Below are positions 1,289 through 46,016 of a stretch of DNA of 51,915 bases, piece by piece. The translations under genes were made by a program, and so were the position numbers. The notes under the pieces were generated by a model. It saw only the letters and a list, made by a program, of their open reading frames with translations. It ran no database searches and was not told the origin of the DNA. Source of the DNA: Candidatus Fermentibacterota bacterium (GTDB lineage Bacteria > JAFGKV01); the NCBI GenBank assembly GCA_030620115.1, contig JAUXFG010000004.1, positions 1-51,915 of the forward strand, in the 5' to 3' direction. Within the stretch, counting starts at the first letter, position 1, and each line of letters begins with the position of its first letter.

Positions 1289-3294
1289 TAGCCCTTCCTC
1301 AGGGATGTGGAGAGTTCTGCGATTGACTGTTTCAGATCAAACAGCGGCCTAAAATCCGTTGATGTCAACAGAATGTGTTGAAGGTCGTCTTCCACCAGAC
1401 TGATGTCTTCTTCAGAAAGCACGCCGCGCTGGCTCAATCTCTGGAGCGCCGTGAGTGCGGCTTTCCGCACCTTCCAGTTATGCTCCAGAAAGAAACGCGT
1501 GAACCTTGTTGCCCAACCTTGTCCCTGCACCGTCTCTCCTAGGGCTTCCAAAGCCGCGGACCGGACCTCGAACCGTGGGTCGTCCACGAGCTGCTCTAAA
1601 GAAGACATGATGCCCGCGTCATCCCGCACATGCGTGGCCATGGCGCCTGCCGCACGGGCTGCGGCAGTTCGGATTTCGAAATAGGCATCAGCAAGCCCTT
1701 GCATCAATGCCTCCCTCACCTCATTATTCCAGATACCCACTTGCCCCAGGGCTACAAGACAATTACGTCGCACAAAATCGTTCTCCTTGAACTCCAATCC
1801 CAGCATCCGCCTCACAAGGCTCCGTGATGACTTTCGATCATAGACCATGGCGGCAATCAGGCTTATCCTTCCACAGAGACCCAAAAGACCTACTAGTTTT
1901 ATGCCGATATTCCTCTCCTCCCACCGGGGAGACGCCAGGTAGCCATCCGTGCGATATGCCAGATACTCTTGCTCCTCCTGTGAGAAGCCGGAACCTGCCT
2001 TGGTTCGCCCTCTGGCATCTTCCAGGAGTAAGCCTCCACGCAGGTGAGCCAGACGATCAAGGTCTCGAGACAAAGAAGGCCATTGCGCATTGTCCCGTGG
2101 GTCTGAGGGAATAGACTCTCCCGCAGCCAAGGCAATGGTTGCCTCGGCAATCAGTCTCGACGCATGTGGAGTCGCCAAACGGCGCCCCCTTTCGCCCAAC
2201 AATTTCAGGCGCGACTCGTCCGACAGCAAACACGCGATCCGACGTGCAAGCTCTTGAGGTGGAGCGACCCCGATGATCTCGTCCTCTGTTCTCACGGGCA
2301 CTTCATATAAGACCTCAGCAGCACCTGCAGCCTGCAGAGCCAGCGCATTCCTGACTTGATGATCCCCTGGGAGGTTTGCCTTGGGAACAAGCAGGGCAGG
2401 TTTGCCGAAGGCGCAGAGTTCACTAAGGCTGCCGGCACCGGCACGACAAACCACGAGATCGGCTGCCGCAAGGTAATCAGAGATCGGATCAAGATAGCCC
2501 ATACAGCGGTAAAAGGAATCAGATGATCCGATGCCCATCTTCGCAATATCCCGGCGCGTCTCCTCCACTGGATCGTAAGAACCTGAAGAAGCCTTTCCCG
2601 TGGCGTGTATGATCAGGAGGCTCTCCACATTGCGGAGGGCAGGCAGAGCCGCCACGATCCCCTTGTTGAGTGCCCGTGCTCCTAGGCTCCCACCGAATAC
2701 GAGCACCACCTTGGCATCTTTGGCAACCCCCAACTTCTCCCGTGCGGCCCCTCTTGTCAGCGGTTCAATCATGCCGGCACGGATGGGATAACCCAAGAAA
2801 GAGGCCCGACCCGGCGGGAACTCCTCCACTGTGGAGGGATACGACACTGCCACCAGGCTCGCCCAACGTGCCGCATAACGATTGAGGCGCCCAGGCGCCG
2901 CATTCTGCTCGTGGAGGAGAACAGGACAGGCAAAAAAGCCCATCTTTCTCCGAAACATGTTGGCAAACACCACGGGCGCTGAGGCGTATCCTCCCGTACC
3001 CACGATGACATCGGGTTTCCAGCGACAGAGTATCCAGAAAGCCTTGATCATGCCTAGAAAGAGGCTTGCCGCGAATCGTGCCAATGCCGGGAGTGAGCGA
3101 CTGGTGGGAAATCCCCTGGAACTCACTGTCCTGAGAGGGATGCCGGCCGCAGGCACAAGCTTTTCTTCCGCCCTGCCCCGGACGCCCACGTAGAGGAAGA
3201 CCGCCTGCGGATCCAGTTTCGCCAGTTGCTCCCCGATGGCCAAAGCAGGATAGACATGTCCGCCGGTACCGCCACCGGTCAGAAGGAAACGCAT
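1288..3294 (-). CDS. murG: MurG (GT28) fused to a C-terminal HEAT-repeat domain
   Basis: GGGTGGH, GTGGYAS, HEQNAAPG, FGGSLGA, RAGAGSLSE and DHQVRNA in aa ~1-390; HEAT-like units (FVRRNCLVALG, FEIRTAAARAAG, FEVRSAALEALG, WKVRKAALTAL) in the last ~230 aa. Confidence 0.92.
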   Translation of the reverse strand: MRFLLTGGGTGGHVYPALAIGEQLAKLDPQAVFLYVGVRGRAEEKLVPAAGIPLRTVSSRGFPTSRSLPALARFAASLFLGMIKAFWILCRWKPDVIVGTGGYASAPVVFANMFRRKMGFFACPVLLHEQNAAPGRLNRYAARWASLVAVSYPSTVEEFPPGRASFLGYPIRAGMIEPLTRGAAREKLGVAKDAKVVLVFGGSLGARALNKGIVAALPALRNVESLLIIHATGKASSGSYDPVEETRRDIAKMGIGSSDSFYRCMGYLDPISDYLAAADLVVCRAGAGSLSELCAFGKPALLVPKANLPGDHQVRNALALQAAGAAEVLYEVPVRTEDEIIGVAPPQELARRIACLLSDESRLKLLGERGRRLATPHASRLIAEATIALAAGESIPSDPRDNAQWPSLSRDLDRLAHLRGGLLLEDARGRTKAGSGFSQEEQEYLAYRTDGYLASPRWEERNIGIKLVGLLGLCGRISLIAAMVYDRKSSRSLVRRMLGLEFKENDFVRRNCLVALGQVGIWNNEVREALMQGLADAYFEIRTAAARAAGAMATHVRDDAGIMSSLEQLVDDPRFEVRSAALEALGETVQGQGWATRFTRFFLEHNWKVRKAALTALQRLSQRGVLSEEDISLVEDDLQHILLTSTDFRPLFDLKQSIAELSTSLRKG

Positions 3295-6758: not shown

Positions 6759-7145
6759 ATGAAATTGACATACCTCGTATTCTGCGGGTTTTGTCTCGCT
6801 CTTGTGGTTCTCCCCCTCGGGTGCGGCAACAAGAAGCCACAAGATGAGACATTCCGCATGGAGCTCTCACCTGGTGAGGGCTCGGGCCCGGCTGAACTCC
6901 TCTCGCGTGCTCAAACAGCACGCACCCCGGAGGAGAAGCTCACGCTTTTCAGACAATTGGCGCAAACATATCCGGACAGCCCACAGGCCGATGATGCCCA
7001 ATTCATGACCGGCTTCCTTCTCAAGGAGAACCTCGGCAAGCCGGAGAAGGCGGCCGAGGCATTCGACGTGCTGAAGACCAAGTATCCTGATAGTGAATGG
7101 ATCGACGACGCCGAGAGTATGATGGGTGACGATCCAGGAGACTGA
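6759..7145 (+). CDS. Small TPR lipoprotein (CpoB/YbgF/BamD-like helical repeats)
   Basis: RBS AAGGAGG; lipobox PLG-C; two YPDS-containing TPR-like units (LAQTYPDSPQADDAQF, LKTKYPDSEWIDDA). Confidence 0.8.
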   Translation: MKLTYLVFCGFCLALVVLPLGCGNKKPQDETFRMELSPGEGSGPAELLSRAQTARTPEEKLTLFRQLAQTYPDSPQADDAQFMTGFLLKENLGKPEKAAEAFDVLKTKYPDSEWIDDAESMMGDDPGD

Positions 7146-7357: not shown

Positions 7358-10135
7358 ATGAATCCAACGAAGTGTTTTCCAGTCTTGATGCTGATTTTCT
7401 TCGGCCTGGCTGCAGGGGTTTTTGCCGGTACCACCGGCAAGGTCGCCGGCAGAATCACCGACGTCGGCTCCGGGGAGCCTCTTCCGGGAACCAATGTGAT
7501 TCTCGAAGAATTGATGACAGGGGCCATTGTTGATCATAATGGTGAGTATGCGATTCTCAACATTCCTCCGGGATCCTACACCCTGCGCGCCGAGATGATC
7601 GGCTATGGAATCATACGGGCGTCACAGGTTTCTATAGGCGTCGATCACACCACGCGGATGGATTTCCAACTCAGCACCGAGGCCATCGCTCTGGAAACCG
7701 CTGTTGAGATCGTTGCGACACGGCCTGCTGTGCAGATGGATCTCACCTCTGCAAGCTCGGTGGTTGGTTCCAACGAGATCGCAGATCTCCCGGTGGACAA
7801 TGTGCAGGATATACTTACTCTTCAGGCCGGCGTTGTGCAGGGCGCATTTGGGGAGCTTCATATTCGTGGCGGTCGGTCGGATGAGGTGGCGTACTGGGTC
7901 GATGGCGTGCAAACCACTGATGTATACGAAGGGGGCCGGGGTGTAGAGGTCCAGAACTCCGCAGTAGAAGAGCTGCAGGTCATTAGCGGGACCTTCAATG
8001 CCGAGTACGGTCAGGCCATGAGCGGTATCGTCAATATCGTCACCAGCGCCGGCGGCTCCGAGTACGAGGGCGCCATCACCGCGTATGCGGGAGAATTCGT
8101 GAGTACGGATGACAAGACATTCTACGATATCAAGAATCTCGATCCATTCAGTACCGTGAATGCCGAGGTGATCTTGAGCGGCCCAGTTCCAGGCATTGAT
8201 AAGAAGTTGACGTTCTTTGGCTTGGGGAGATACTACGATACTGAGGGTTACTTCTTCGGAAAGCGGGTCTTTTATCCTGATGGCTCAGTGGGCGAGAGCT
8301 CTGCGGTGGCCATGGCGCCCTCCCAGAACATCTACCTGCAAGGTAAGCTGGCGTGGAAACCAAAACCCGAATTAAAGCTCACCTACGGCCTGTTCTGGGA
8401 GGAGAGCGAGCACAAAGATTACGACCATTATTACAAGTACAATCCGGACGCAACGCTCAATCGCTTCAACACCGGGCAGACGCATATAGTAACCTTCACG
8501 CATACCCTTTCCTCTCACACCTTCTATGAGTTGCGGGCCACAAGATTCAATACGGGCTACAAACACTACCTATACGAGGATCCCTTGGATCCCCGATATG
8601 TGCATCCGGACAGCCTTACTGCTCCGGCGAACTACAGCTTCGGGGTTGGCGGAACGCAGATGTCTCACTTCTCCAGAACCACCGAGTATTTGACGATAAA
8701 AACCGACCTGATAAGCCAGATCACCAAACGTCACCAGCTCAAGACAGGCCTGGAGCTCAGGGCGCATAGCCTCGAGATGGACGATGCCGAAGTGAGACCG
8801 AAGACCGTAGGGGGGTACGACGAGTTCGGCGATTGGGACGAACTGGCCGGAACCGAGATCACGCCCTTCGAACCAACGATCCACCCGACACGGAGCCCAT
8901 ATCACGACTACTACAAGAGGAAGCCCAAGGAGTTCAGCGCCTATGTGCAGGACAAGATTGAGTTCCAAGAGATCATCCTCAACCTGGGTCTTAGATTCGA
9001 CTACTTCGATCCAGAGGGCGTGGTACTCGCCGATCCGCAGGATCCCGACGTGAATCATCCGTTGCTTCCCGAACATGTGTACAAGAACTACTCGCCCGCG
9101 GTGACTGACAGCGAGTTGGTCGCCTATACGTTGGCGGAACGAGAGGCCTTCTGGTACAATGATGTCAGCGCAAAGACGCAGATCAGCCCAAGGCTCGGGG
9201 TGGCATATCCAATCACCGACCGGGGCGCGATCCACTTCTCATATGGTCATTTCTTTCAGATACCCCAATTCAGATATCTCTACGAGAATCCAGAGTTCGA
9301 AGTGGCTCGCGGCTCCGGCTTGGGCACGATCATCGGAAACGCTGACCTCGATCCCCAGAAAACGGTGATGTACGAGATCGGACTGCAGCAGGCGCTCTCG
9401 GATGTTGATGCCTTTGACATTACCATGTTCTACCGCGACATCCGCGACTGGGTCGGTACCAGCGAAGCCATCAGTATGTATGTGGCGGGGACCTCGTATA
9501 GCCGGTATATCAATAAGGACTATGCCAATGCCAGAGGCGTCACGCTTACCTATGACCGGCGGTTCATCGATGGATTGAGCGCGGGGTTAGACTACAGTTA
9601 CATGGTGGTGGAAGGATCCGCTTCAGACGCGGCGGACGCATATAATGCCGCCCGTGAGAATCAATCGCCCAAGATCAGCCTGATCCCCTTGGGGTGGGAC
9701 CAGACCCATACGTTGAACGCCTCCCTGGCGGTGGGATCCCACACGTGGCGCGCCACTTTATTGGGTCGATTCGCCAGCGGCACCCCGTATACGCCATCAT
9801 TCGCTCGCGGCCAGATCGCTGGGTCGGGTCAATATGTGGGCCTCGCGGAGAACTCCGAGCGCAAGCCCAACGTGTACAACATCGACCTGAAGCTTTATAA
9901 GAAGCTCGATTTCGGCCGGCTTCGCTATACGGTATTTCTTAATATCTATAATGTCTTTGATACACGGAATGAAACGGGGGTCTACTCCACCACAGGGAGA
10001 GCCACCTATGACCTGGATGCCCAGACCGCATCCGACGACCCCAACCGTCCCAACACCGTTGAGGAATACATCACACGGCCGGATTACTACTCCGAGCCTC
10101 GCAGAGTACAGTTCGGCGTGACTGCGTCCTTCTGA
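7358..10135 (+). CDS. TonB-dependent receptor (CarboxypepD_reg-like N-domain, plug, barrel)
   Basis: Signal peptide then GTTGKVAGRITD; plug LHIRGGRSDEVAYWVDG; ISGTFNAEYGQAMSGIVNIVT; LGLRFDYF; C-terminal ...VQFGVTASF. Confidence 0.95.
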   Translation: MNPTKCFPVLMLIFFGLAAGVFAGTTGKVAGRITDVGSGEPLPGTNVILEELMTGAIVDHNGEYAILNIPPGSYTLRAEMIGYGIIRASQVSIGVDHTTRMDFQLSTEAIALETAVEIVATRPAVQMDLTSASSVVGSNEIADLPVDNVQDILTLQAGVVQGAFGELHIRGGRSDEVAYWVDGVQTTDVYEGGRGVEVQNSAVEELQVISGTFNAEYGQAMSGIVNIVTSAGGSEYEGAITAYAGEFVSTDDKTFYDIKNLDPFSTVNAEVILSGPVPGIDKKLTFFGLGRYYDTEGYFFGKRVFYPDGSVGESSAVAMAPSQNIYLQGKLAWKPKPELKLTYGLFWEESEHKDYDHYYKYNPDATLNRFNTGQTHIVTFTHTLSSHTFYELRATRFNTGYKHYLYEDPLDPRYVHPDSLTAPANYSFGVGGTQMSHFSRTTEYLTIKTDLISQITKRHQLKTGLELRAHSLEMDDAEVRPKTVGGYDEFGDWDELAGTEITPFEPTIHPTRSPYHDYYKRKPKEFSAYVQDKIEFQEIILNLGLRFDYFDPEGVVLADPQDPDVNHPLLPEHVYKNYSPAVTDSELVAYTLAEREAFWYNDVSAKTQISPRLGVAYPITDRGAIHFSYGHFFQIPQFRYLYENPEFEVARGSGLGTIIGNADLDPQKTVMYEIGLQQALSDVDAFDITMFYRDIRDWVGTSEAISMYVAGTSYSRYINKDYANARGVTLTYDRRFIDGLSAGLDYSYMVVEGSASDAADAYNAARENQSPKISLIPLGWDQTHTLNASLAVGSHTWRATLLGRFASGTPYTPSFARGQIAGSGQYVGLAENSERKPNVYNIDLKLYKKLDFGRLRYTVFLNIYNVFDTRNETGVYSTTGRATYDLDAQTASDDPNRPNTVEEYITRPDYYSEPRRVQFGVTASF

Positions 10136-10154
10136 GTAGAGGATCGAGGTGACC

Positions 10155-13100
10155 ATGAAACAATTCAGTCTCACATTCGTTGCACTGGTTCTTCTCCTCG
10201 TGGGATCATCCGTTGAGGGGAAGGTCGATGAACGGGGAAGCTACGATGCCCGACTCAAGAACTGGCATAGCGGGAATCTTGTGCATACGACATATTTCAA
10301 CTATGGCATGATAGGGCGGGAACTACCTGCGGTCACCGGCGAGGTGGGGGGCGAATGGCCCATCAACTCGGGGCACTGGTATGTCGGCGACGTCAGCGTC
10401 TTGGTAGGCGCAGAGATCATCGACATGAATGGTGATACGCTGTACTCGGTTGAAGTGTCCGACGGCCCCCGGGGGAACAACGAATACAGCCCCGACGGGT
10501 CGACCTACTGGGGATGGGAGCCCATCCCCGGCTATGCAACACGAGTTGCGGATACGGACAATTGCTGTATCGCCATGAGTCATCAACCTGAGTCATGGCC
10601 ATCCTTTTGGCCCGACAAGACAGACGACGAAAACGACCCCGGGTGGCACGGCCAATGGAACGGCTACTTCGGCAAGGACGTCTCCAACGCTGATCAGGAA
10701 AGCTACTGGGTCATGGATGACGCCTCGGATGAGGAGTTCCTCTTCTACCCCGATGCCACCGACAGTACCAGGAGAGGGTTGGGGCTCCGGGTCTCAGTCA
10801 GGGGCATGCAGTGGAGCCATGTCCTGGCCGAGGATTGTATCTTCTGGATATATGATATCACCAACATCGGGACGACCGACTACGACAAAGTAGTGTTCGG
10901 CATGATCGTCGGCGGTATGGTCGGCGGAGGTGGCGATGCAGGTGATGACCATGCCGACTTCCAGAAGGAAGACAACATCACCTACTGCTGGGATCATGAC
11001 AATGTCGGCCAAGGCGGCTTCAGCCCCGTGGGATATGTTGGCTATGCCTTCTTGGAGAGCCCCGGCAATCGATTCGATGGGATCGATAATGATGGAGATG
11101 GGAGCGGAGGTTCGGGCATGGTCCTGACCAGGTCTTCTTTCGCTCCGAAGATCTATAACATCGGTGATGAGATCGTGATCATCGAGTACGATTCGTACGA
11201 ACGAACCGTGGAGACCATGCCGGCAGAAGGTATTGACATCCTCTACCGGGGAAATGTCTACCATATCAATCCCGGAACGGAGATCAGAGAGATCCCCCGG
11301 AACAACATCGACGACAACCTTGACGGCCTCATCGATGAGAATAACGGCTTTGAGGTCGAGAGCGTACAGTACTACTTGAATGAGGGCTTGCTCGCCAAAA
11401 ACTGGCTCACCGGCGAAGGTCTGGACAACCCTATGATCGACGAGGGCAGAGATGATGGGATCGACAATGATGGTGACTGGGATCCCATCACCGACGACGT
11501 CGGCCTGGACGGCAAGGCGGGGACGGGCGATATCGGTGAGGGTGATGGGCTGCCCACCAGTGGCGCCGGCACGAACCTCCCTGGTGAGCCCCACATCGAC
11601 AAAACGGACATCGATGAATCCGATCAGCTTGGTTTGACCAGCTTCTACTTCTTTCATCCCTCCGGAAAGATCAAGCTCCGCAACGACGAGCAACTATGGG
11701 AGGCAATGGCGCCAGGGTACTTCAACGCCACGGCCCAAAACGTAGACGGAGACTTCGTCTATGGGTCCGGTTACTTCCCACTGAAGGCAGGTCAGACAGA
11801 GCGGATCTCAGTCTGCCTCGTGTTTGGTGATGACCGTGACGACATCCTCAGAAACAAACGTACCGTGCAGACGATCTACAACGAGAATTACAACTTCGCC
11901 AAAGCACCCGAGCTGCCGACACTCACGGTGGTCCCAGGCGACAAGAAGACCACACTCTACTGGGATTCGGCATCAGAGAGCTCGTTCGATGTTATCTCGG
12001 GCTATGACTTTGAAGGATACAAGATCTACAAGGCCACGGATACCGAATGGGCGGATGCGTCCGACATCACCGATGCATGGGGAAGCCCGAAGTTCGACAA
12101 GCCCGTGGTCATCTATGACCTCAAGGATGGAATCCAGGGCCTTTTTCCTTTGGTGGACGAGCGCCTTGGCGCCCAGTTCGATCTCGGAAGTGATTCCGGC
12201 CTCAAACACAGCTTTGTTGACACTGATGTGGTCAACGGTCAACGCTACTTCTACGCCGTGACGGCCTATGATCGTGGGGATATTCCCAAGGAACTCTCTC
12301 CAGCCGAGACGTCGAAGTTCGTGAAGATAAACCCGGACGGCACCATCTCGGCGGGCAGGAATGTCGGGTACGCCATACCCAACCCCAAGGCCACGGGATA
12401 TGAGCCGCCAACCGGTGAGGGCGAGCTGGCCCGGGAAGGGCAGGCCCATGGAACGGGCACGGTCTACCTGGAGATTCTCAATCCCGATGACGTGCCGGAA
12501 TCAGGCCTTGACTGCATCGTTTCCTTCACCGACCAATCCAATGATTCGTGGGACAACGACGGTGACTGGATCCCATGGGATGACGAGCCAAATGGCATGT
12601 GGGACTCCAACGAACCATTCAGCGACGTTGGCGTCGACGGTCTGGCCGATGAACAGGAAATCAGCGGTGACGGCAGGGTCTACAATCCTACCACAAATCC
12701 CGATCCTGCAGGTGACAACTACGATGCGCTCAACAATCCTGCGGGTACCGAGCATAACGCCAAGTGGGATTTTACTGACATCAACTCCAACGGCGTTTTC
12801 GACCCCGCATTCGAGCAGGCGGAACCATGGACCGATCTCGGAGACGGAGTTCTCGATCCAGGAGAGGACATCATCCACGACACGGGAACCGATGGGCTCA
12901 AGCCCGGAGACCCCGGCTATCCCGGCCCTGATGCCGATGGGACCGAGGCCAACGGGCTTCCAGATCCCGGTGAACCGAACATCGATCTTCGAGATCCCGA
13001 CGAATGGATTCCTTTGACCACAAGCTTCTCGGTTTACGATAGAATCAGTGGTTCGTACCTGGTGGAGAGAGAAACGGATCTTGTTGGTGACTCCCGGTTC

Positions 13101-13982
13101 TTTTTGCTCGATGAGGAGCCCCTGGGAATGAGGCTTCAGATAATGAATGATACTACCATCACAAAGATCGATAGCACCTCGGGGTGGAATCTGTACCGAG
13201 CGGAGAACTATGCCTACTCCTTTGAGCCATTCCGCGCGGCAGGCATAGATGAGGAAGGAGTCAGATTCCCAAGAGATTATCTGCTCACTTTCTCCGATGA
13301 CCTCTCCGAGAGCTCATGGGCACTAAGTATTGGCCCGTTTGATTTGCCTGCCAGAGCGTGCAACTTCACCGTCACGGATCCCAATATGCGAGAAAACATA
13401 AGCTTCGCGTTCATCGATGCGAATCTTGAACCTAGCCTGCATGATCCCGGATATATCACCAATCTCGATCAGCTCATCTTCTTCGAGCGCACCGACGAGA
13501 GCCGCCTATTGACCTGGAAGCTCACCTTTGTGGGTTTCGACTCAACGGCTCACGTACCCGTAGGTGGAGACGAGCTCAGGATGTCCACCACAAAACCATT
13601 CAGCGCCACGGATTCATTCATCTTCGAGGTCCACCCCCAAGAGGTGAACACCGAAGGCCTGCAGGAGAATGTGCTGGACGAGATCATCGTGGTGCCCAAC
13701 CCATATATCGCATCGGCAAGCTGGGAAGGGAAGAACCCATTCTCCGATGGGCGTGGTCCCCGGGAGCTGCACTTCGTCAACCTCCCCGAACGCTGCACTA
13801 TCAGGATCTACACGGTTGGCGGCCAGCTCGTCGACACCATTGAGCACGACTCGCTCACTGGTACGGCGGTGTGGGATATGCTCACCAAGGACAGTCTCGA
13901 CATAGCCTACGGCGTTTACATTTTCCATGTTGATGCCCCGGGTATTGGCGAGAGAATCGGCAAATTCGCCGTCATCAAGTAG
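10155..13982 (+). CDS. Large secreted acidic protein with DxDxDG repeats, FN3-like segment and T9SS-like C-terminal domain
   Basis: Signal peptide; many DNDGD motifs; FN3-like FEGYKIYK...YFYAVTAYD; CTD VVPNPY...IRIYTVGGQLV...YGVYIFHV...GKFAVIK; ATG 10155 follows GAGG. Confidence 0.85.
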   Translation: MKQFSLTFVALVLLLVGSSVEGKVDERGSYDARLKNWHSGNLVHTTYFNYGMIGRELPAVTGEVGGEWPINSGHWYVGDVSVLVGAEIIDMNGDTLYSVEVSDGPRGNNEYSPDGSTYWGWEPIPGYATRVADTDNCCIAMSHQPESWPSFWPDKTDDENDPGWHGQWNGYFGKDVSNADQESYWVMDDASDEEFLFYPDATDSTRRGLGLRVSVRGMQWSHVLAEDCIFWIYDITNIGTTDYDKVVFGMIVGGMVGGGGDAGDDHADFQKEDNITYCWDHDNVGQGGFSPVGYVGYAFLESPGNRFDGIDNDGDGSGGSGMVLTRSSFAPKIYNIGDEIVIIEYDSYERTVETMPAEGIDILYRGNVYHINPGTEIREIPRNNIDDNLDGLIDENNGFEVESVQYYLNEGLLAKNWLTGEGLDNPMIDEGRDDGIDNDGDWDPITDDVGLDGKAGTGDIGEGDGLPTSGAGTNLPGEPHIDKTDIDESDQLGLTSFYFFHPSGKIKLRNDEQLWEAMAPGYFNATAQNVDGDFVYGSGYFPLKAGQTERISVCLVFGDDRDDILRNKRTVQTIYNENYNFAKAPELPTLTVVPGDKKTTLYWDSASESSFDVISGYDFEGYKIYKATDTEWADASDITDAWGSPKFDKPVVIYDLKDGIQGLFPLVDERLGAQFDLGSDSGLKHSFVDTDVVNGQRYFYAVTAYDRGDIPKELSPAETSKFVKINPDGTISAGRNVGYAIPNPKATGYEPPTGEGELAREGQAHGTGTVYLEILNPDDVPESGLDCIVSFTDQSNDSWDNDGDWIPWDDEPNGMWDSNEPFSDVGVDGLADEQEISGDGRVYNPTTNPDPAGDNYDALNNPAGTEHNAKWDFTDINSNGVFDPAFEQAEPWTDLGDGVLDPGEDIIHDTGTDGLKPGDPGYPGPDADGTEANGLPDPGEPNIDLRDPDEWIPLTTSFSVYDRISGSYLVERETDLVGDSRFFLLDEEPLGMRLQIMNDTTITKIDSTSGWNLYRAENYAYSFEPFRAAGIDEEGVRFPRDYLLTFSDDLSESSWALSIGPFDLPARACNFTVTDPNMRENISFAFIDANLEPSLHDPGYITNLDQLIFFERTDESRLLTWKLTFVGFDSTAHVPVGGDELRMSTTKPFSATDSFIFEVHPQEVNTEGLQENVLDEIIVVPNPYIASASWEGKNPFSDGRGPRELHFVNLPERCTIRIYTVGGQLVDTIEHDSLTGTAVWDMLTKDSLDIAYGVYIFHVDAPGIGERIGKFAVIK

Positions 13983-13995
13983 AGGGGGTGACAAG

Positions 13996-15018
13996 ATGAA
14001 GCGACTTTGGCTTGTACCAGTTGTGGCAGCTTTGGTCTGGGCCCCCTGCCATGGGGATACGGTGACCAAGACAGGTACTACGGCGGCCACCTTCCTGTCC
14101 ATTGGGGTGGGAAGCCGAGCCCTGGGCATGGGAGGAGCATTCGTTGCCGTGGCCAATGATGTATCGGCATTGTATTGGAACCCGGCGGGAACTGCTCATC
14201 TCGCATCTCCGGAGTTCATGTTCAGCCACAATGAATGGCTTGCGGACATCAACTTTGATTACGCAGCCACCGCCATACCGGTTGGAGAGCGCGGTGTTCT
14301 CGGGCTCAGCGCCACATTCCTCACCATGGGGGAAGAGCCCGTCAGAACGGTCCTGCAGCCTGAAGGCACGGGTGAGCTTTTTGATGCGGGGAGCTATGCC
14401 ATGTCCCTGGGCTACTCCATGATGCTCACCGACAGGTTTTCCATAGGATTCTGTGGCAAGTATGTCAGGGAGTATATCAAAGATTGCAATTCCACGGGCT
14501 TTGCCATGGATGTGGGGACGCTTTTCGAGACACAGTGGCGCGGCCTGATGTTGGGCATGAGCATCTCGAACTTCGGGACCAAGTTGCAGATGGCGGGAAA
14601 CGATGTGCTTGTTCAGGTGGATCCTGATCCCACTCAGGAAGGCAATAATGAGAACATCAATGCCAACATTGCACTGGACAAATTCGACATGCCGCTTGTT
14701 TTTAGGGTCGGTCTTGCCATGGATGTGCTCAGGGATGTAGCTGGAAACAGTCTTCTCGTGAGCATGGACGCACTGCATCCCAACGACAATACCGAGGCCA
14801 TGGACTTCGGCGTCGAATACGGCTTGGCCGACCGGCTGTTTTTGCGGGCAGGCTACAAGTCGGCATTCATGAAAGACAGCGAGGAAGGGCTCGCGGCAGG
14901 GCTTGGGCTCTCCCTCCCCATATTAGGCTCAGCGAATCTGAAGCTTGACTATGCATATCAGAGTTTTGGCAGGCTCGAGCAGGCACACCGAGTCAGCATT
15001 CTGATCAGCGCCATTTAG
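13996..15018 (+). CDS. PorV/PorQ-family (UPF0164-like) outer-membrane beta-barrel
   Basis: Signal peptide then GTTAATFLSIGVGSRALGMGGAFVAVANDVSALYWNPAG, the hallmark N-terminus; amphipathic strands; LFLRAGY, LDYAY. Confidence 0.9.
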   Translation: MKRLWLVPVVAALVWAPCHGDTVTKTGTTAATFLSIGVGSRALGMGGAFVAVANDVSALYWNPAGTAHLASPEFMFSHNEWLADINFDYAATAIPVGERGVLGLSATFLTMGEEPVRTVLQPEGTGELFDAGSYAMSLGYSMMLTDRFSIGFCGKYVREYIKDCNSTGFAMDVGTLFETQWRGLMLGMSISNFGTKLQMAGNDVLVQVDPDPTQEGNNENINANIALDKFDMPLVFRVGLAMDVLRDVAGNSLLVSMDALHPNDNTEAMDFGVEYGLADRLFLRAGYKSAFMKDSEEGLAAGLGLSLPILGSANLKLDYAYQSFGRLEQAHRVSILISAI

Positions 15019-15161
15019 CAGGAAAGAACGAAAGGAGGCGCCTATCGGAGAACCTATGTAACCGCACGCTCGCGCCAAGCGAGTCTTGCGGTCCCTGTAG
15101 TAGCCCATCCCGGGACAAACGATCCCGCGGAAGATTTGTTGCACCACCATAAGGAGGATCT

Positions 15162-16949
15162 ATGACACGGTGCAAGTTTCTCGTAGCTCTGGGGGTCATC
15201 GCTCTTCTTGTTCAGGGTGCGTCGGCCCAAGTCACGGTGACATTCAGGCTGAACACCTGCACCGTGAACGCCTACGATATCACGGACGAGAGCATGGTCC
15301 AGGTACGCGGGAGCATCGCACCCATCACCTGGGGTGACGATTCCGTGAACTTGGTGAACACGGCCGGTGATTACTGGGAAGCCGTGGTCACTTTCGACGC
15401 ATCGGAGACAGGGAATACCCTGGAGTACAAGTACTATGCCGAGGATTGGGAAAGCACCGACAATAAGACGTTGCTGCTCGACCAGGATGTGACCCTGGAT
15501 CTCGCCTACTTCAACAATGGCTTCAATCCTCCGTACACGCCCACGGATGATATCGACCTCTGGTTTCGGGTCAGCATGGAGTCAAATGCCATCTTCAACC
15601 CTGATACGGATGAGGTGGGCATGAGAGGTGCCGGCGTCGATGATCTGTCATGGTCGACAAATCTTGTCTTGGATAGAGAGGATGAAAGCTTCTACTACTC
15701 GGGCCAGGTGACTGCTCCTGTGGACTCTGCCGGAGTGACGATCGAGTACAAATTCGTGCGAGGCACCGCTCCCGACGAGTGGGAGGATCTGCCGGAAGGG
15801 AATCGAACACTTGTGATCCCCGCTGAAGATCAGACCATTGTCTGGGCATATTGGAACAATGAGGAGCCTTCTCCCGCCATTATCGACACCGGCGTGGTCA
15901 CCTTCAAGGCCGACATGTCCGACCTGATTTCCAATGGATGGTTCGATGCCGGGACTGACTGGATCTCGGTTCGCGGGAACTTCGAGGGATGGGGCAACCA
16001 GGAGCCCATGGTCCCCGGTCTTATCGAACCCACCATCTATGAGTGGGGATATGAGATCATTGCCGAGCATGAATCCACCATCTCGTGGAAGTTCAAGGCA
16101 TTCCCCGATGAGCACTTCCTCGATTCCGGCTGGGAGCTGGGCGCCAACCACGAGTTCCCCTTCATTGGTGAGGAAATATTGGATCCCCGGTTTCCGGATA
16201 TCTGGCCGGCGGGAGGTCCTGTGGAGGTCGATGTTACACTCAACGTCGGCTGTGATATGACCAACGCCATATGCTGGTATACTGGGGAGCCCTTCCCATC
16301 CATCGGGAGTGTGTGGCTCGCAGGTGATGACGGCACTGGTCCCCTGGAGTGGCCAAGCTGGGACCCGGATGACACCACAAGCATGGTCCGGCTCTACGAT
16401 GACGGGACCAACGGAGATCAGACCCCAGGCGACGGCATCTGGGCGGCTGATGTGCTCATGCCCGAAGGAACATCGAGCACGATCCTGTACAAGTATAGCG
16501 TCTGGTACCCAGGCGTGGAGAATCTCAACGACGGAAGCACTCCCATGGACAACGAGGCTGGCTTCGCCATGAACCATGCCGCTGTCCTGGATAGGTACGA
16601 GGAGAACCAACAGCTCTTCGACGCATTCGGCGACCAGCCTGTTCATGAGATCAAGGGTGCGACAAAACCGGAAACCGTGGCACTTGGCTACAACTGGCCG
16701 AATCCCTTTTCTCAGAGCACGTGCATCAACTACACCATTCCCGTGTCCGGTGAGGTGAACCTCTCAGTGTACGATCTCAGCGGGAGAAAGGTGACCATGC
16801 TCCATGATGGCTATCAGAATGCAGGCATGTATGCTGCCATGTGGAATGGCAGAGATACCAGCAATAAGCCTGTGGCAACTGGTACGTATCTGATGAGACT
16901 GGAGAGCGCGGCAGGCTCCGCCACCAGAAGGATTGTGGTTCTCCGATAG
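15162..16949 (+). CDS. Secreted protein with four CBM20-like (starch-binding) domains and a T9SS/FlgD-type CTD
   Basis: RBS AAGGAGG; signal peptide; repeated VTF...V.VRG...W...(L/I)EYK(Y/F)...WE...N pattern; LYDDGTNGD..PGDGIW motif; CTD NWPNPF...VYDLSGRKV...WNGRD...TGTYLMRL...RRIVVLR. Confidence 0.8.
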   Translation: MTRCKFLVALGVIALLVQGASAQVTVTFRLNTCTVNAYDITDESMVQVRGSIAPITWGDDSVNLVNTAGDYWEAVVTFDASETGNTLEYKYYAEDWESTDNKTLLLDQDVTLDLAYFNNGFNPPYTPTDDIDLWFRVSMESNAIFNPDTDEVGMRGAGVDDLSWSTNLVLDREDESFYYSGQVTAPVDSAGVTIEYKFVRGTAPDEWEDLPEGNRTLVIPAEDQTIVWAYWNNEEPSPAIIDTGVVTFKADMSDLISNGWFDAGTDWISVRGNFEGWGNQEPMVPGLIEPTIYEWGYEIIAEHESTISWKFKAFPDEHFLDSGWELGANHEFPFIGEEILDPRFPDIWPAGGPVEVDVTLNVGCDMTNAICWYTGEPFPSIGSVWLAGDDGTGPLEWPSWDPDDTTSMVRLYDDGTNGDQTPGDGIWAADVLMPEGTSSTILYKYSVWYPGVENLNDGSTPMDNEAGFAMNHAAVLDRYEENQQLFDAFGDQPVHEIKGATKPETVALGYNWPNPFSQSTCINYTIPVSGEVNLSVYDLSGRKVTMLHDGYQNAGMYAAMWNGRDTSNKPVATGTYLMRLESAAGSATRRIVVLR

Positions 16950-16968
16950 ATCCGCACGTCTTCGATCC

Positions 16969-17006
16969 AACCGGGGAAGAGAGTTCACCTCTTCCCCGGT
17001 TTCTCT
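16969..17006 (+). terminator. Rho-independent terminator of the TonB receptor operon
   Basis: 13-bp perfect stem AACCGGGGAAGAG/CTCTTCCCCGGTT, 7-nt loop, pyrimidine tail, 19 nt after the stop. Confidence 0.75.
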
Positions 17007-17037: not shown

Positions 17038-17220
17038 TAGCCCGTATTCCTTACCGGCCATCTGCTGCAGCGTTGCATTTGGCCCTGCCTGCGGCGTTAC
17101 GCTCCTTCGGACTCCTCGATGTATCGCAGGGGATACGCCTGCGGGGTCCTCGGTCGCAAGCCTTGCAGCCAAAGCCAACTACAGCGCTTCGCGACGAAAG
17201 CCGGTAAGAAATGCGGGCTA
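17038..17220. mobile_element. MITE with ~21-bp terminal inverted repeats and TA ends (copy 1)
   Basis: TAGCCCGTATTCCTTACCGGC (17038-17058) versus GCCGGTAAGAAATGCGGGCTA (17200-17220), 19/21 complementary; internal homology to the element at 23440-23650. Confidence 0.8.
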
Positions 17221-18299
17221 ACGATCCAGGAAGCAGGATTGCACCAGATCCCATCACGGGAGCGGAATCTGTTGCTGAGCTGATGAATAAGGCCTTTCTC
17301 GCCTACAATTCCGCCCGTCTCCGCGAGGCGGCACTCCTCCTGGTGGAAGAGATCTCAGCTCCCGATGTTACCACGGTATGGACCTTGAGTGGGGCTCTCA
17401 CTCCCGCAGGGCTTGGAACATCATGCCTGGTGCCGCTCATGCAGGCAGGATGGGTCGACTGGCTCATATCCACCGGGGCAAATCTGTATCACGATCTCCA
17501 TTATGTCTTGGACCTGCCGCCGCGGATGGGTCACCCGAATCTCGATGACAGGGAGCTCAAGGAACAAGGCCTGGTGAGGATCTACGATATTCTCCTCCGG
17601 TACGACGTTCTCCTCTCCACCGATGCCTTTGTCCGATCCGTGGTGGAAGAGCAGATCCAAGGTCATGGGAAGCCTCTCAGCACGCCTGAGCTCCACGCAG
17701 CATTGGGCAAAGCGGCGGCGAAGGAGAGGCAACGCCGTGGTGTATCCAATCCGGGCATTCTCGAAACAGCAGTCAATCTCGACATCCCGATCTTCTGCCC
17801 GGCCCCTGGAGACAGTTCCATCGGCATGAACATTGCGGCGCTTTCTCTGCCAGGCAAAGCCCTAGTGATCGATCCCACAGCCGACGTGAATCTCGCGGCA
17901 TCCATCGTCTGGGAAGCCAAGCAAAAGGGTGGAAAGAGCGCGGTCATCATTCTCGGCGGTGGCGCACCCAAAAACTTCGCGCTCCAGACGGAGCCTTATC
18001 TTCAGGAGATTCTGGGTCTTAAGGAAAGCGGTCATGACTTCATGATACAGATCACCGACGCTCGCCCGGACACCGGAGGCCTCTCAGGAGCGACACCGTC
18101 GGAGGCAGTCAGTTGGGGAAAGATCGATCCGCTGGAACTGTTCAACACGGTGGTCGTGTATCTCGATATCACGGTAGCCCTGCCGCTCCTGACTTCCTAT
18201 CTCCTGGCAAAAGCAAAACCCAGAGAGCAGAAAAGGCTGATGTCCCGCAGGCAGAAGCTCGTGAAGGATCTCAAGGATGCGGTTAGTATTCAGACATGA
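17211..18299 (+). CDS. Deoxyhypusine synthase-like protein (bacterial homospermidine-pathway type)
   Basis: SGALTPAGLG, ISTGANLYHDLH, APGDSSIGM, GGGAPKNF, DTGGLSGATPSEAVSWGK with the active-site Lys retained. Confidence 0.92.
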   Translation: MRANDPGSRIAPDPITGAESVAELMNKAFLAYNSARLREAALLLVEEISAPDVTTVWTLSGALTPAGLGTSCLVPLMQAGWVDWLISTGANLYHDLHYVLDLPPRMGHPNLDDRELKEQGLVRIYDILLRYDVLLSTDAFVRSVVEEQIQGHGKPLSTPELHAALGKAAAKERQRRGVSNPGILETAVNLDIPIFCPAPGDSSIGMNIAALSLPGKALVIDPTADVNLAASIVWEAKQKGGKSAVIILGGGAPKNFALQTEPYLQEILGLKESGHDFMIQITDARPDTGGLSGATPSEAVSWGKIDPLELFNTVVVYLDITVALPLLTSYLLAKAKPREQKRLMSRRQKLVKDLKDAVSIQT

Positions 18300-19908: not shown

Positions 19909-22836
19909 ATGCGACAGTTCCGCATCATGATGATCATGGCTCTCATCCTTGCGGCGACCACATCCTTTGCCGGCATCCAGATCGTGTCCGGCAGTAACCC
20001 CATGCAACTTCCCCATGCGTCTGATCTACGACTCGACCGAGAGCAGGTGTTGACGCTCCAGGCCCAAGACCAGCTCAAGCGTCTCCCCATGGAGAAGGCC
20101 GCGCGGGCCGCAAACATATCGCTGAAGCCTGAGGCCGATCCCAGGGGCGGCACCATTATAGGAAGTGTGACGGGACCGCAATGCCCCGAGGGCTGCGAGT
20201 ATGACGTTGATGTCCTGGCTCTGAATAAGTATGGATTCGTCCTTTCCTCCGATTGGGTGTGGATGGACGGCCGGGCCGACTATGAGCTCAGCGGGCTCCC
20301 CCCTGGTGACTACTACGTGTTCACACTCACCCAAGGGTGGGACGACGATGTGCACCAGGGCACGCTCATCAACGAGTTCTATGACAATACAACAGACTGG
20401 AATCAGGCAAGCCTCGTTACCGTAACTGCGGGGGGGACCACCGACGGCATAGACCTCGATCTCGAGAGCAATAGTGGTTTCGTCTCGGTTACTGTGAATG
20501 ACGGATCGGGTCAGCCCCTGGCAAACACGGGCGTCGAATTCGAGCTGTACCCCTATGCACCAGCGGAAGAGGATATTTTCACGGAAGGTCACGTATTGCA
20601 TCATACCGTGACCACCGATGACGCCGGCGTGGCGACAGTTGGCCCGATTCCTCTCGGCACGTTCTATCTCTCCTGCCGTGCCCTGAACTTCGGGCGGATA
20701 TTCTACCCCAATACGCCCGATCCTGAGCAAGCCCAGTCGTTGGAGATCACCACTCCTGACCAAACGATTACCGGTATCACGTTCAATCTCCCACCGGGTG
20801 GGAATATAGCCGGGATCATCACCTTGGATACGGGCGAGGCTGCCTTCGGAACCATGGTGGATGTGTACGAGATCGGCAGTGATAGCTCCATTGCCATGGG
20901 TATGGTCTTCAACTTCGACGGGAGCTACATCGTCGAGGGGATTGCACCAGGCAACTATGTGGTACGTGCGGATCCCAGCTTCGCCAGTCCAGGCTATATG
21001 CCTGAGTACTATGATGACAAGCCCACTGCTGAGAGCGCCAACCCGGTGACCGTACAGCCAGGCCAAACCACCGAAGGAATCGACTTCGTGCTGGCACAAG
21101 GTGGGGCCATCAGTGGTACTGTGGACACAGACGTTCCTTCTGCCGATGAGTTTTTATTCTTTGTTTCAGCGTTCGCCCCCGACGACAGCACATTCTTTGT
21201 TGCCATGACCTTCGCGGAAGCAGGAGAGGAGTACATCATCGGGGGACTCCGGCCCGGGCAGTACATAGTCTCATTGCAGGGTTTCCCCTTTCCGCTTTTG
21301 CCCATCTACTATGACGATGTCCATAGCTTCGATCAAGCCACTCCTGTCACGGTGACGGGTACATCCACCACCACAGGCATTGACTTCAACCTTCCTGCCC
21401 GCGGAATCATCGAAGGCGCCGTCACGCTGGCCGGAGGAGGCACGGCGGACAATGACATCGTCGAGTTCGTCATTGCCTATCCAGAGAGTATTCCTCTGGA
21501 GGGTGATGTACTGGAGCTATTCTTCATGTATCCGGCTCCTGTGGACGAGAATGGTTCTTACACCATATGGGGCCTCCCCACGGGCAACTACAAGGTGTGG
21601 GCGTCAACCACAGTGGGTGATTACGACGAGATCGGATATGTATCAGAATATTACGGGGGGGTATTCAACTTCCCGGACGCGCCGACGATCCAGGTCACTG
21701 AGGATCAGACCACCAGCGGCATAGATATCGAGCTGGATCAGGAAGCCATTGTGCAAGGTTACGTCCATATGCCTGACGGCAGCCCGGCCAGCGATGAAGA
21801 CATCCAGGTATTGATCGTCGCCTATGACGCTGAGAGCGGAGCGCCGACGGGCTTCAGCCTATTCGACGAAGCGCCCATCTACACGGAAGAGGACAACACC
21901 TTCTGTGCGGGGTATAGGATCCGCCGTCTTCCCGCTCGGCAAGTGAAGCTCGCCGCGGTTCCCATGGGCGCACAGGCGGCAGTAGGCTATTATGGTGGGG
22001 GCCACACCTTCGACCAGGGTGGTACGGTCCAGTTGACGGCAGGAGAGGCCTATGCCTCAGACCTTGATATCCATCTCACGGCAGCCAATCAGACCATAAA
22101 GGGGAGAGTCACCAATAGTGAAGACGCCCCGCTGAACTGGGTGATCGTGACATCATATGATCTCACCGGGCATTTGACTGGGGTGAGCAGCAGTGGCTTC
22201 GACCCTGCTACAGGGGACGAGTGGCAGGCCGGGAGATACGAGATACAGAGCCTGGCCAGTGGCAGCACCCACTATGTGAGAACATGGAGTCTCATGGCGT
22301 GGGTACGATACATCTTCCTCAACGAGGGAGCCGATATCATACCTGCGGACGAGTGGTACGACGATGTTCCGGCGCCGCTTCTTCCTATGGAGATGGCCAT
22401 GTTCATGCCCTTCGGGTATTACTACTTCTTCGGATTCATGCCATTCGAGCAGGATGTGCCGCTTGAAGCTACCCAGGTGTCGGCCAGCTCCTCGGGGATA
22501 GACTTCGCATTGGGGTATCAGGGAATGGGCTCTGACGAAAAGCCCATGGCGCTCCCGGACGCCCTCACCATGGATCGAGTATGGCCGAACCCGACGCAGA
22601 AAGACCTGACTGTTGAGCTCGCGCTGCAGTCGCCACAGCAGGTACGCCTTGAGATCCTCGATCTCGCCGGCAGAACCGTCGGCACGCTGGAAGCCCGATT
22701 GCTCCCACGGGGACTGAACCATATCCGTATTCCCATGGGACAGTTCGATAACACGGTGGCATCCGGTGTATACACCGTCCGGGCCATCGGGCAAGACGGC
22801 GCCTCCGCAAGCAATAGATTTGTGGTCCTAAGATAG
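19909..22836 (+). CDS. Secreted protein with seven carboxypeptidase-regulatory-like beta-sandwich repeats and a T9SS-type CTD
   Basis: RBS AGGAGG; signal peptide; repeat (E/I)(Y/F)Y.......A..V.V......GID(F/L).L x7; CTD WPNP...ILDLAGRTV...ASGVY...NRFVVLR. Confidence 0.85.
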   Translation: MRQFRIMMIMALILAATTSFAGIQIVSGSNPMQLPHASDLRLDREQVLTLQAQDQLKRLPMEKAARAANISLKPEADPRGGTIIGSVTGPQCPEGCEYDVDVLALNKYGFVLSSDWVWMDGRADYELSGLPPGDYYVFTLTQGWDDDVHQGTLINEFYDNTTDWNQASLVTVTAGGTTDGIDLDLESNSGFVSVTVNDGSGQPLANTGVEFELYPYAPAEEDIFTEGHVLHHTVTTDDAGVATVGPIPLGTFYLSCRALNFGRIFYPNTPDPEQAQSLEITTPDQTITGITFNLPPGGNIAGIITLDTGEAAFGTMVDVYEIGSDSSIAMGMVFNFDGSYIVEGIAPGNYVVRADPSFASPGYMPEYYDDKPTAESANPVTVQPGQTTEGIDFVLAQGGAISGTVDTDVPSADEFLFFVSAFAPDDSTFFVAMTFAEAGEEYIIGGLRPGQYIVSLQGFPFPLLPIYYDDVHSFDQATPVTVTGTSTTTGIDFNLPARGIIEGAVTLAGGGTADNDIVEFVIAYPESIPLEGDVLELFFMYPAPVDENGSYTIWGLPTGNYKVWASTTVGDYDEIGYVSEYYGGVFNFPDAPTIQVTEDQTTSGIDIELDQEAIVQGYVHMPDGSPASDEDIQVLIVAYDAESGAPTGFSLFDEAPIYTEEDNTFCAGYRIRRLPARQVKLAAVPMGAQAAVGYYGGGHTFDQGGTVQLTAGEAYASDLDIHLTAANQTIKGRVTNSEDAPLNWVIVTSYDLTGHLTGVSSSGFDPATGDEWQAGRYEIQSLASGSTHYVRTWSLMAWVRYIFLNEGADIIPADEWYDDVPAPLLPMEMAMFMPFGYYYFFGFMPFEQDVPLEATQVSASSSGIDFALGYQGMGSDEKPMALPDALTMDRVWPNPTQKDLTVELALQSPQQVRLEILDLAGRTVGTLEARLLPRGLNHIRIPMGQFDNTVASGVYTVRAIGQDGASASNRFVVLR

Positions 22837-45876: not shown

Positions 45877-45954
45877 GCCTCCAGCCCCCCTTCCGTTACG
45901 AAGAAAAAACGTTGCATCTCGTTGCATCTCAATGAATCCGTGCATCCGACCTCC

Positions 45955-45988
45955 TCCCCCTTTTGCAAAGGGGGACTGAGGGGGATTT
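45955..45988. repeat. TCCCCCTTTTGCAAAGGGGGA-type palindromic repeat
   Basis: Near-perfect hairpin plus adjacent GAGGGGGATTT, in the gap between the lipid kinase and C25-A. Confidence 0.6.
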
Positions 45989-46016
45989 TTCGATATCGCC
46001 CGCACTCACTGAGATG

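Follow-up and report, generated by a model that had tools for sequence, protein, structure and literature searches.

A 51,915-nt stretch of Candidatus Fermentibacterota DNA (contig JAUXFG010000004.1; hereafter the window) carries on its plus strand a four-gene unit (positions 7358–16949) encoding a TonB-dependent receptor (gene 1), a large secreted protein that we call BIG (gene 2), a barrel of the PorV/PorQ family (gene 3) and a protein with modules resembling carbohydrate-binding module family 20 (CBM20; gene 4). We read this region, with a probability of roughly 0.6, as a cassette for the capture and import of starch or maltodextrin that operates without SusD and without surface lipoproteins. 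The trio of receptor, BIG and barrel probably does the job of the SusC/SusD pair of gut Bacteroides. Judged from sequence comparison, the trio is a real and widespread variant of the TonB-dependent glycan-uptake loci, and the mechanism that we propose for it is plausible.

Calling of open reading frames (ORFs) on the plus strand gave gaps of 19, 13 and 143 bp between the four genes, followed by a terminator-like hairpin (Table 1). The hairpin had a folding energy of −26.4 kcal/mol (z −3.4), with 0 of 200 shuffles equally stable, and was absent from the output of a simple terminator scan. Searches of Pfam and NCBIfam detected neither SusD nor a glycoside-hydrolase domain among the four proteins. 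These results reproduced a preliminary description of the window, which had reported the same unit, gaps and closing terminator and the lack of both protein types; the 1276 residues that it gave for BIG were close to the actual length, which is 1275 from the ATG or 1277 from the GTG. Rfam and tRNA scans of the window returned no match.

The receptor, BIG and barrel genes form a conserved trio

The conservation of the trio was surveyed in the best 80 of at least 576 stretches encoding a BIG relative, taken from contigs of one genome per species. The triad, whose conservation the preliminary description had proposed as a check on its reading, was strongly conserved: receptor, BIG and barrel genes lay on one strand in 64 of the 80 loci, from at least seven phyla. 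With T, B and P denoting receptor, BIG and barrel, the gene order among these 64 loci was T-B-P in 47, T-P-B in 15 and B-P-T in 2. In 13 of the 16 loci without the full trio, the contig ended on the side on which the absent gene was expected, and L066 extended just 1.3 kb downstream of BIG, with no barrel. Counted singly, a receptor homologue was present in 73 of the 80 loci, mostly directly 5′ of BIG, and a barrel homologue in 64. The median gaps were 20 bp between receptor and BIG (n = 74) and 6 bp between BIG and barrel (n = 48), both of which are minimum values, the longest ORFs having been taken.

The trio is also multiplied within genomes. In the window's genome (4.1 Mb, 98% complete), we found five sets of receptor, BIG-like protein and barrel, on contigs C7, C99, C276, C262 and C237. 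The partner proteins of the four further sets (Table 1) are 620–1097 aa long; contig C211 encodes two proteins with a BIG-type tail, with a receptor or barrel not nearby. A BIG profile detected many full-length paralogues, some in tandem, in genomes of WOR-3, Caldithrix, Marinimicrobia, KSB1 and Melioribacteraceae, and every one of 20 regions surrounding 24 divergent BIG paralogues from three other genomes contained the trio. Among 201 sampled genomes of the phylum to which the Melioribacteraceae genome belongs, 89 carried the BIG family (E ≤ 1e-30), and the order T-B-P was found in 7 of 8 regions from these genomes.

To follow the three genes together, a BIG tree of 81 rows was built with FastTree after three loci with a BIG shorter than 900 aa had been dropped, and was divided into four clades, the window's BIG falling into a clade of 34 rows with a support of 95. 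When the clade labels were mapped onto the barrel tree (60) and the receptor tree (63), with two-copy loci left out, they required four changes on the former and three, the minimum possible, on the latter, compared to 26–33 changes in five examples from 200 shuffles of the labels; as kin share labels, this count is no probability. The same phyla occur in several clades, indicating that paralogue sub-families, rather than the relationships of species, shape the pattern. By the evidence of these trees, receptor, BIG and barrel diversify together.

A prolyl isomerase of the PPIC type with a SurA-like N-terminus adjoins the trio in many loci: its cluster, formed by single linkage, is represented in 39 of the 80 (examples in Table 1), with no member at the window's locus. 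This protein may assist the barrels or BIG as a chaperone in the periplasm.

Gene 1 has a signal peptide followed by CarboxypepD_reg, Plug and TonB_dep_Rec_b-barrel domains in Pfam. Its scores of 40 bits with PF07715 (cut-off 23.9) and 97 bits with PF00593 (cut-off 27) place it among the TonB-dependent receptors, and it also matches the OMP_b-brl_3/4 models. A TonB-box-like VEIVATRP, judged by eye, and the plug motif HIRGGRS are conserved across 69 aligned family members. The receptor lies outside the SusC/RagA sub-family, with TIGR04056 giving 44.1 bits against a cut-off of 368 and covering residues 28–240 only.

Starch genes accompany one group of BIG sub-families

Gene 4 is, on its domain content, predicted to be a secreted starch-binding protein. 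Its C-terminus is a type A tail for a type IX secretion system (T9SS), which scored 35.8 bits with TIGR04183 (cut-off 23), while PF18962 gave 24.4 bits by hmmscan (cut-off 27) and 28.4 bits in the genome search. The CBM20 model (PF00686) matched one stretch only, with 20.6 bits against a cut-off of 23.3; a profile of the second module revealed three clear CBM20-like modules and a weak one. The four CBM20 modules of the preliminary description were thus right in substance: the protein's own Pfam score is below threshold, and the support comes from the module profile and from relatives. A gene-4 homologue lay downstream of the trio in 33 of the 80 loci. Among 24 homologues run against Pfam, CBM_20 was matched by 20 (E ≤ 0.01, best E 2.7e-21), X25 by 9, CBM48 by 8, AMPK1_CBM by 6 and Por_Secre_tail by all 24.

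Further starch genes were found in the neighbourhood of the trio. Using a home-made profile of glycoside hydrolase family 13 (GH13), we detected GH13 ORFs in 25 of the 80 loci, all with the order T-B-P. At L009, a protein with GH13 (PF00128, E 6.8e-51), CBM48-like modules and a type IX tail is encoded 3′ of the cassette, and L126 and L127, on long contigs of other genomes, contain in this order the prolyl isomerase, receptor, BIG, barrel, a tail protein with CBM20 or CBM48, LacI and a tail protein with GH13 and CBM48. LacI regulators occurred in 12 loci and binding proteins of sugar ATP-binding cassette (ABC) transporters in 10. The window's genome holds seven GH13-like ORFs away from the locus, two of which end in a type A tail.

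The distribution of these genes differed among the BIG clades. A GH13 gene, a gene-4-like protein or both were present in 27 of 32 loci of the window's clade and in 7 of 8 loci of the Marinimicrobia clade, compared to 3 of 23 in the remaining clade and 0 of 14 in the T-P-B clade, where CBM9 and GH26 proteins take their place. The gene-4-like proteins in these counts come from a single-linkage cluster, a few members of which may be joined by their tails alone. Of 52 ORFs next to divergent BIG paralogues, 17 had a type IX tail and 4 had CBM9, and GH94, GH18, GH3, GH16 and PF10091 were found in one each. The BIG sub-family thus varies with the carbohydrate-active enzymes (CAZymes) encoded at the locus, in the manner of SusD sub-families. 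The preliminary description had assigned the locus to alpha-glucans; the starch-binding modules in 20 of 24 gene-4 homologues and the GH13 genes in 25 of 80 loci agree with that assignment, and the alpha-glucan reading of the window's trio is well supported by these gene contexts.

We also considered that the trio might be unrelated to glycans and serve envelope biogenesis, adhesion or the uptake of another nutrient, with the starch genes adjoining it through shared surface localisation or regulation. This would suit the prolyl isomerase cluster in 39 of 80 loci, the BamD-like lipoprotein with tetratricopeptide repeats (TPR) encoded upstream of the window's receptor, and the absence of CAZyme neighbours from the four other trios of the genome and from the window's locus. 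The BIG sub-families, however, track the CAZymes of their loci (GH13/CBM20, GH26/CBM9 or others), the families expand per genome as components of a polysaccharide utilisation locus (PUL) do, and the linkage to gene 4 holds across phyla. We therefore consider a role outside glycan uptake very unlikely.

BIG is a secreted protein of a large family without Pfam annotation

BIG has a signal peptide without a lipobox, and only 1 of 80 family members shows a lipobox-like motif; on these signals, it is predicted to be a secreted protein and no lipoprotein. Residues 1–800 are conserved and contain an FN3-like stretch and many acidic loops of the DxDxDG type, which we take to resemble calcium sites. 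Residues ~800–1170 are variable, and the C-terminal domain beyond them is conserved. The identity of BIG was 78% to the relative from Fermentibacteria and 42–59% to those from WOR-3, Calditrichota, KSB1 and Marinimicrobia. A HMMER search with residues 24–800 returned 1479 representatives (50% identity) at E ≤ 0.001 and 436 at E ≤ 1e-30. Among 7999 candidates scored, 3494 were relatives at E ≤ 0.001, and every name given by the sources was 'hypothetical protein'. The window protein matched no Pfam family, Pfam searches of 40 homologues gave weak CHU_C matches alone (9 of 40), the BIG profile had 0 matches among PDB sequences at E ≤ 1, and a search of the ESM Atlas returned BIG's own unannotated family alone.

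Two ideas about BIG were discarded. A CBM20-like module within BIG was not supported, as the comparison of BIG with the gene-4-family profile gave a tail match alone. A core housekeeping role, suggested by the 50% identity across phyla, was dropped because the BIG family is multi-copy and linked to CAZymes.

BIG could be the locus's principal surface enzyme or a platform for processive binding, from an unrecognised carbohydrate-active family and anchored by the barrel, while the receptor would work alone like the SusD-less TonB importers of Proteobacteria. The lack of a Pfam match or of a PDB sequence relative would fit such a protein, as would its many invariant acidic residues, a length of ~1200 aa that is twice that of SusD, the absence of a recognised hydrolase from the window's locus, and locus L107, where three BIGs in tandem accompany one receptor and one barrel. 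The invariant acidic residues, though, are mostly within the DxDxDG-type loops, which may be calcium sites, and loci of the same clade already hold GH13 and CBM proteins of their own. Further, BIG lies directly 3′ of the receptor, which is the position of susD, and its co-diversification with the receptor is as tight as that with the barrel. On balance, an enzyme or platform beside an independent receptor seems unlikely to us.

The last ~90 residues of BIG could be aligned by hhalign over their full length with the type A tail that the gene-4 family carries (E 2e-4, probability 46%), and PF18962 was found in 61% of the members of a related Atlas cluster. The weak CHU_C matches in 9 of 40 homologues also count towards a tail of this kind. 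By this comparison, the BIG tail would be a distinct sub-class of T9SS tail. The preliminary description had called this region a CTD (C-terminal domain) of the type IX kind; the label is supported via the relatives of BIG, while the curated Pfam and NCBIfam models miss the tail. A BIG-type tail occurred in nine ORFs of the window's genome, five of them in triads. Over 32 loci, the mean pairwise identity was 49% for the BIG tail, close to the 51% of the BIG body, and 39% for the gene-4 tail. Among the three tandem BIGs of L107 (1186–1215 aa), which follow one receptor and one barrel, the tail was the best conserved part (79–82%) and the region before it the least (55–67%). This locus suggests that several BIG partners can share one docking barrel.

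The barrel leans towards PorQ

Gene 3 belongs to the PorV/PorQ family (NF033709, 210.2 bits; cut-off 90) and stays below both equivalog cut-offs, with 94.1 bits against 220 for PorQ (NF033711) and 77.6 against 250 for PorV (NF033710). All five triad barrels of the window's genome scored higher for PorQ than for PorV. According to passages of PMC10202324, PorZ retains its tail and is bound through it to PorQ, and cognate PorV-like barrels have been suggested to shield tails from cleavage. A further precedent, from passages of PMC12578637, is the FadL/PorV-like BamG, which packs against BamA and whose loops hold the surface protein BamH. The earlier proposal that BIG has its own PorV paralogue fits the five sets in one genome, the co-diversification, the preference for PorQ over PorV and the PorQ–PorZ precedent, and the gene-3 barrel as dedicated partner of BIG is a well-supported prediction from these comparisons.

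A sixth barrel of the same genome (405 aa, contig C58) scored 154 bits with the PorV model, which makes it a better PorV candidate than the triad barrels. It lies directly 5′ of an M6-like metalloprotease with FG-GAP repeats, forming another pair of barrel and partner; the metalloprotease scored 264 bits against 600 with NF052323 ('T9SS-dependent M6-like inactivated metalloprotease').

An Oar-type TonB-dependent transporter needed for protein secretion does exist (PMC6434023), and the window's receptor shares the outline of Oar and matches OMP_b-brl_3/4. The receptor might be an exporter as Oar is for PopC and form with the barrel a private route by which BIG is secreted and displayed, making the trio a display device instead of an importer; among type IX cargo, the tail of BIG is unusual. 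That tail nevertheless still aligns with type A tails, the barrel is of the type IX PorV/PorQ family, and the carrier genomes hold SprA. In addition, the loci hold secreted glycanases, sugar transporters of the cytoplasmic membrane and LacI, and no other outer-membrane importer. We regard an export function of the receptor as highly improbable.

SusD and the type IX system in genomes with the trio

SusD (PF07980) had no match in the four proteins or in the whole genome of the window, which is 98% complete. Among five carriers from other phyla, four had no PF07980 match and the Melioribacteraceae genome had one; five further genomes of its phylum had 0 to 4 matches, and passages of PMC3534657 describe one classical sus operon in Melioribacter roseus. 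'SusD-less', as the preliminary description put it, is hence true of this genome and no rule for the family, as genomes of one phylum hold both systems.

The type IX system of the window's genome was represented by SprA_N (63 bits, at a contig end) and by 43 matches of PF18962. The PorV candidate on C58 and two PorU-like genes of the window all scored under the equivalog cut-offs. The latter two are adjacent genes on the minus strand (Table 1) for giant C25-peptidase proteins that resemble PorU and 'PorU2'; they gave 162 and 215 bits with NF033707 (cut-off 420), and the larger one has four CARDB repeats. Such side-by-side PorU paralogues may pair with many PorV-family barrels.

Proposed mechanism and the points that weigh against it

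In the mechanism that we propose, gene 4 would be exported by the type IX system, lose its type A tail, be fixed to the surface and hold starch there in the role of SusE/F. Secreted amylases encoded elsewhere in the genome, likewise type IX cargo, would cut the polymer. BIG would take the same export route, keep its unusually conserved tail and dock it in the dedicated PorQ-like barrel, as PorZ does in PorQ. Docking would place BIG next to or above the receptor, whose substrate-specific partner at the surface it would be; the variable region before the tail would give specificity, and BIG would pass maltooligosaccharides to the receptor for TonB-driven import. Anchoring in the manner of PorQ/PorZ would thereby replace the SusD lipoprotein in a glycan locus. 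The weakest step is BIG as a SusD-like lid; BIG might act as a lid, a binding platform or an enzyme.

Several observations weigh against the reading as a cassette for starch import. As for the tail of BIG, no curated Pfam or NCBIfam tail model passes (the best is the PorZ tail, with E 0.005), PF18962 in the genome search and a home-made profile of the type A tail both miss it, and the hhalign probability is just 46%. The contact of BIG with the barrel or the receptor is a prediction, and no fusion of barrel and BIG or of barrel and receptor occurred among long BIG relatives or 34 longer PorV-family proteins, the latter being fused instead to TPR, OmpA or FN3 domains. At two loci, L054 and L059, the sequence continues for more than 7 kb downstream without a barrel gene. 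Clade labels and neighbours are common to kin, and the counts given above overstate independence. As BIG has no Pfam match, it may be an unrecognised enzyme. The window's own locus has no amylase, regulator or inner-membrane transporter in Pfam searches, so the starch assignment depends on gene 4 and on relatives, and no CAZyme neighbours the four other trios of the genome. GldM, the one component of the GldKLMN motor and ring that was searched for, gave no GldM_1st match in the window's genome, which leaves the documentation of the type IX core partial. Finally, the presence of SusD and the trio in the same genomes indicates that the two architectures can coexist and that 'replacement' is not strict.

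Beyond the window, a TonB-dependent transporter, a type IX partner of ~1200 aa and a PorQ-like barrel that keeps the uncleaved tail might form a general glycan-import unit of the SusD-poor FCB phyla, by which we mean Fermentibacterota, Marinimicrobia, Calditrichota, KSB1, WOR-3 and Bacteroidota of the Ignavibacteria type. It would be an equivalent of SusCD built on secretion tails and not on lipid anchors, with the window's copy as its starch member. We advance this generalisation tentatively, rating its chances at a little under even.

Comparison with known systems

As in the Sus system (SusC, D, E, F and G) of Bacteroides thetaiotaomicron, a TonB-dependent importer is encoded directly 5′ of a presumed substrate-specific surface partner, and the trio loci hold starch-binding surface proteins, secreted GH13 and LacI-type or other sugar regulation. 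Like SusC/SusD pairs, many paralogous trios occur per genome, each beside different CAZymes. In contrast, the window's receptor is outside SusC/RagA (44 bits against 368), BIG has ~1200 aa and no SusD_RagB match, where SusD is ~550 aa long, the surface proteins of the trio loci carry type IX tails in place of lipid anchors, and the trio has a third gene, for a PorV/PorQ-family barrel. A strict PUL is defined by adjacent susC-like and susD-like genes; by its sequence, the window's locus has no such pair and is PUL-like by gene context only.

The PorQ–PorZ and PorV–PorU pairs of Porphyromonas gingivalis and pairs of the SprF–SprB type likewise dedicate a PorV-like barrel to one cargo, with the retained tail serving as anchor, and the window's barrel, which leans to PorQ, is of the same family. 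Unlike PorQ–PorZ and PorV–PorU, the barrel stays below both equivalog cut-offs, BIG is unrelated to PorZ or PorU, the pair of barrel and BIG is tied to a TonB-dependent receptor and multiplied per genome, and the retention of the BIG tail is a prediction. In the BamG–BamH–BamA assembly of the Bacteroidota BAM complex, a FadL/PorV-like barrel lies against a larger barrel and holds a surface protein, which is the geometry proposed for barrel, receptor and BIG; the function there is protein insertion, and the match between BamG and the window's barrel is weak (25 bits against 250). Oar of Myxococcus xanthus, which serves PopC secretion, has a regulatory-like domain, a plug and a barrel and is a TonB-dependent barrel linked to a secreted protein. 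It is likened to the receptor here by outline, not by sequence, and it differs in that it lacks a PorV-family barrel and a type IX tail and lies outside any glycan locus.

Searches of full-text literature, which did not cover supplements, found no publication on the trio, and term look-ups in PMC3534657 and in the 2026 transporter review PMC13543919 found no mention of it. New here are a Fermentibacterota instance of the trio, a clean association of starch genes with one BIG sub-family, a SusD-free genome with five trios, and the co-diversification counts. PUL prediction and much inference on glycan degradation in oceans, sediments and digesters rely on SusC/SusD and are blind to phyla lacking SusD. 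If the reading is true, the conserved trio would flag loci for glycan uptake in Marinimicrobia, Calditrichota, KSB1, WOR-3, Fermentibacterota and Ignavibacteria, the BIG family would play for PULs of these phyla the marker role that SusD has in Bacteroidia, and PorV-type barrels would have a second use in fixing the surface partner of an importer. The trio would also put a large family without Pfam annotation on the map, and its starch sub-family is the easiest experimental entry because the substrate is predictable.

Features and neighbouring genes

Table 1. Positions of the genes and elements named in the text
Feature	Sequence	Position	Strand	Remarks
TonB-dependent receptor (gene 1)	window	7358..10135	+	925 aa
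BIG (gene 2)	window	10155..13982	+	1275 aa from ATG; 1277 aa from GTG at 10149
BIG C-terminal domain	window	13683..13979	+	residues ~1177–1275; divergent, highly conserved putative T9SS-type tail
PorV/PorQ-family barrel (gene 3)	window	13996..15018	+	340 aa from the ATG yielding the 13-bp gap; longest ORF start 13927
Gene 4, CBM20-like modules and T9SS type A tail	window	15162..16949	+	595 aa
Type A tail of gene 4	window	16680..16946	+	residues 507–595
Terminator-like hairpin	window	16969..17001	+	13-bp G+C-rich stem, 20 bp past the gene-4 stop, then UUUCUCUG
Small lipoprotein gene	window	6759..7145	+	~128 aa from ATG; lipobox LPLGC; TPR_6 38 bits (cut-off 26.3); weak YfiO/BamD-like match
Further receptor/BIG-like/barrel set	C99	16589..23939	+	
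Further receptor/BIG-like/barrel set	C276	13597..20373	-	
Further receptor/BIG-like/barrel set	C262	2927..8453	+	
Further receptor/BIG-like/barrel set	C237	4464..13904	-	
Sixth barrel and M6-like metalloprotease (locus L103)	C58	4447..8821	+	barrel 405 aa
Locus L107, with three tandem BIG genes	G002:C154	15000..34999		
Prolyl isomerase	L002	16193..17518		
Prolyl isomerase	L104	7986..9503		
Prolyl isomerase	L126	14903..16576		
C25-peptidase protein	window	34960..39171	-	1403 aa
C25-peptidase protein	window	39184..46005	-	2273 aa
MurG-like glycosyltransferase	window	1288..3294	-	668 aa
Deoxyhypusine-synthase-like gene	window	17211..18299	+	PF01916, E 6e-69
Type IX cargo protein	window	19909..22836	+	975 aa

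The small lipoprotein gene ends 212 bp upstream of the receptor, and the Fermentibacteria relative L001 has its coding sequence conserved in that position; the gene clusters that recurred in the 80 loci from other phyla did not include it. It may be an accessory or fifth gene of the unit that is specific to Fermentibacterota.

Downstream of the cassette lie the deoxyhypusine-synthase-like gene and the gene for a type IX cargo protein that contains CarboxypepD_reg and SpaA-like domains; both genes are syntenic with L001 and outside the cassette in other phyla. At the other side, beside MurJ, the window encodes a MurG-like glycosyltransferase in which the N- and C-domains of GT28 are joined to HEAT repeats at the C-terminus, an arrangement unusual for MurG.

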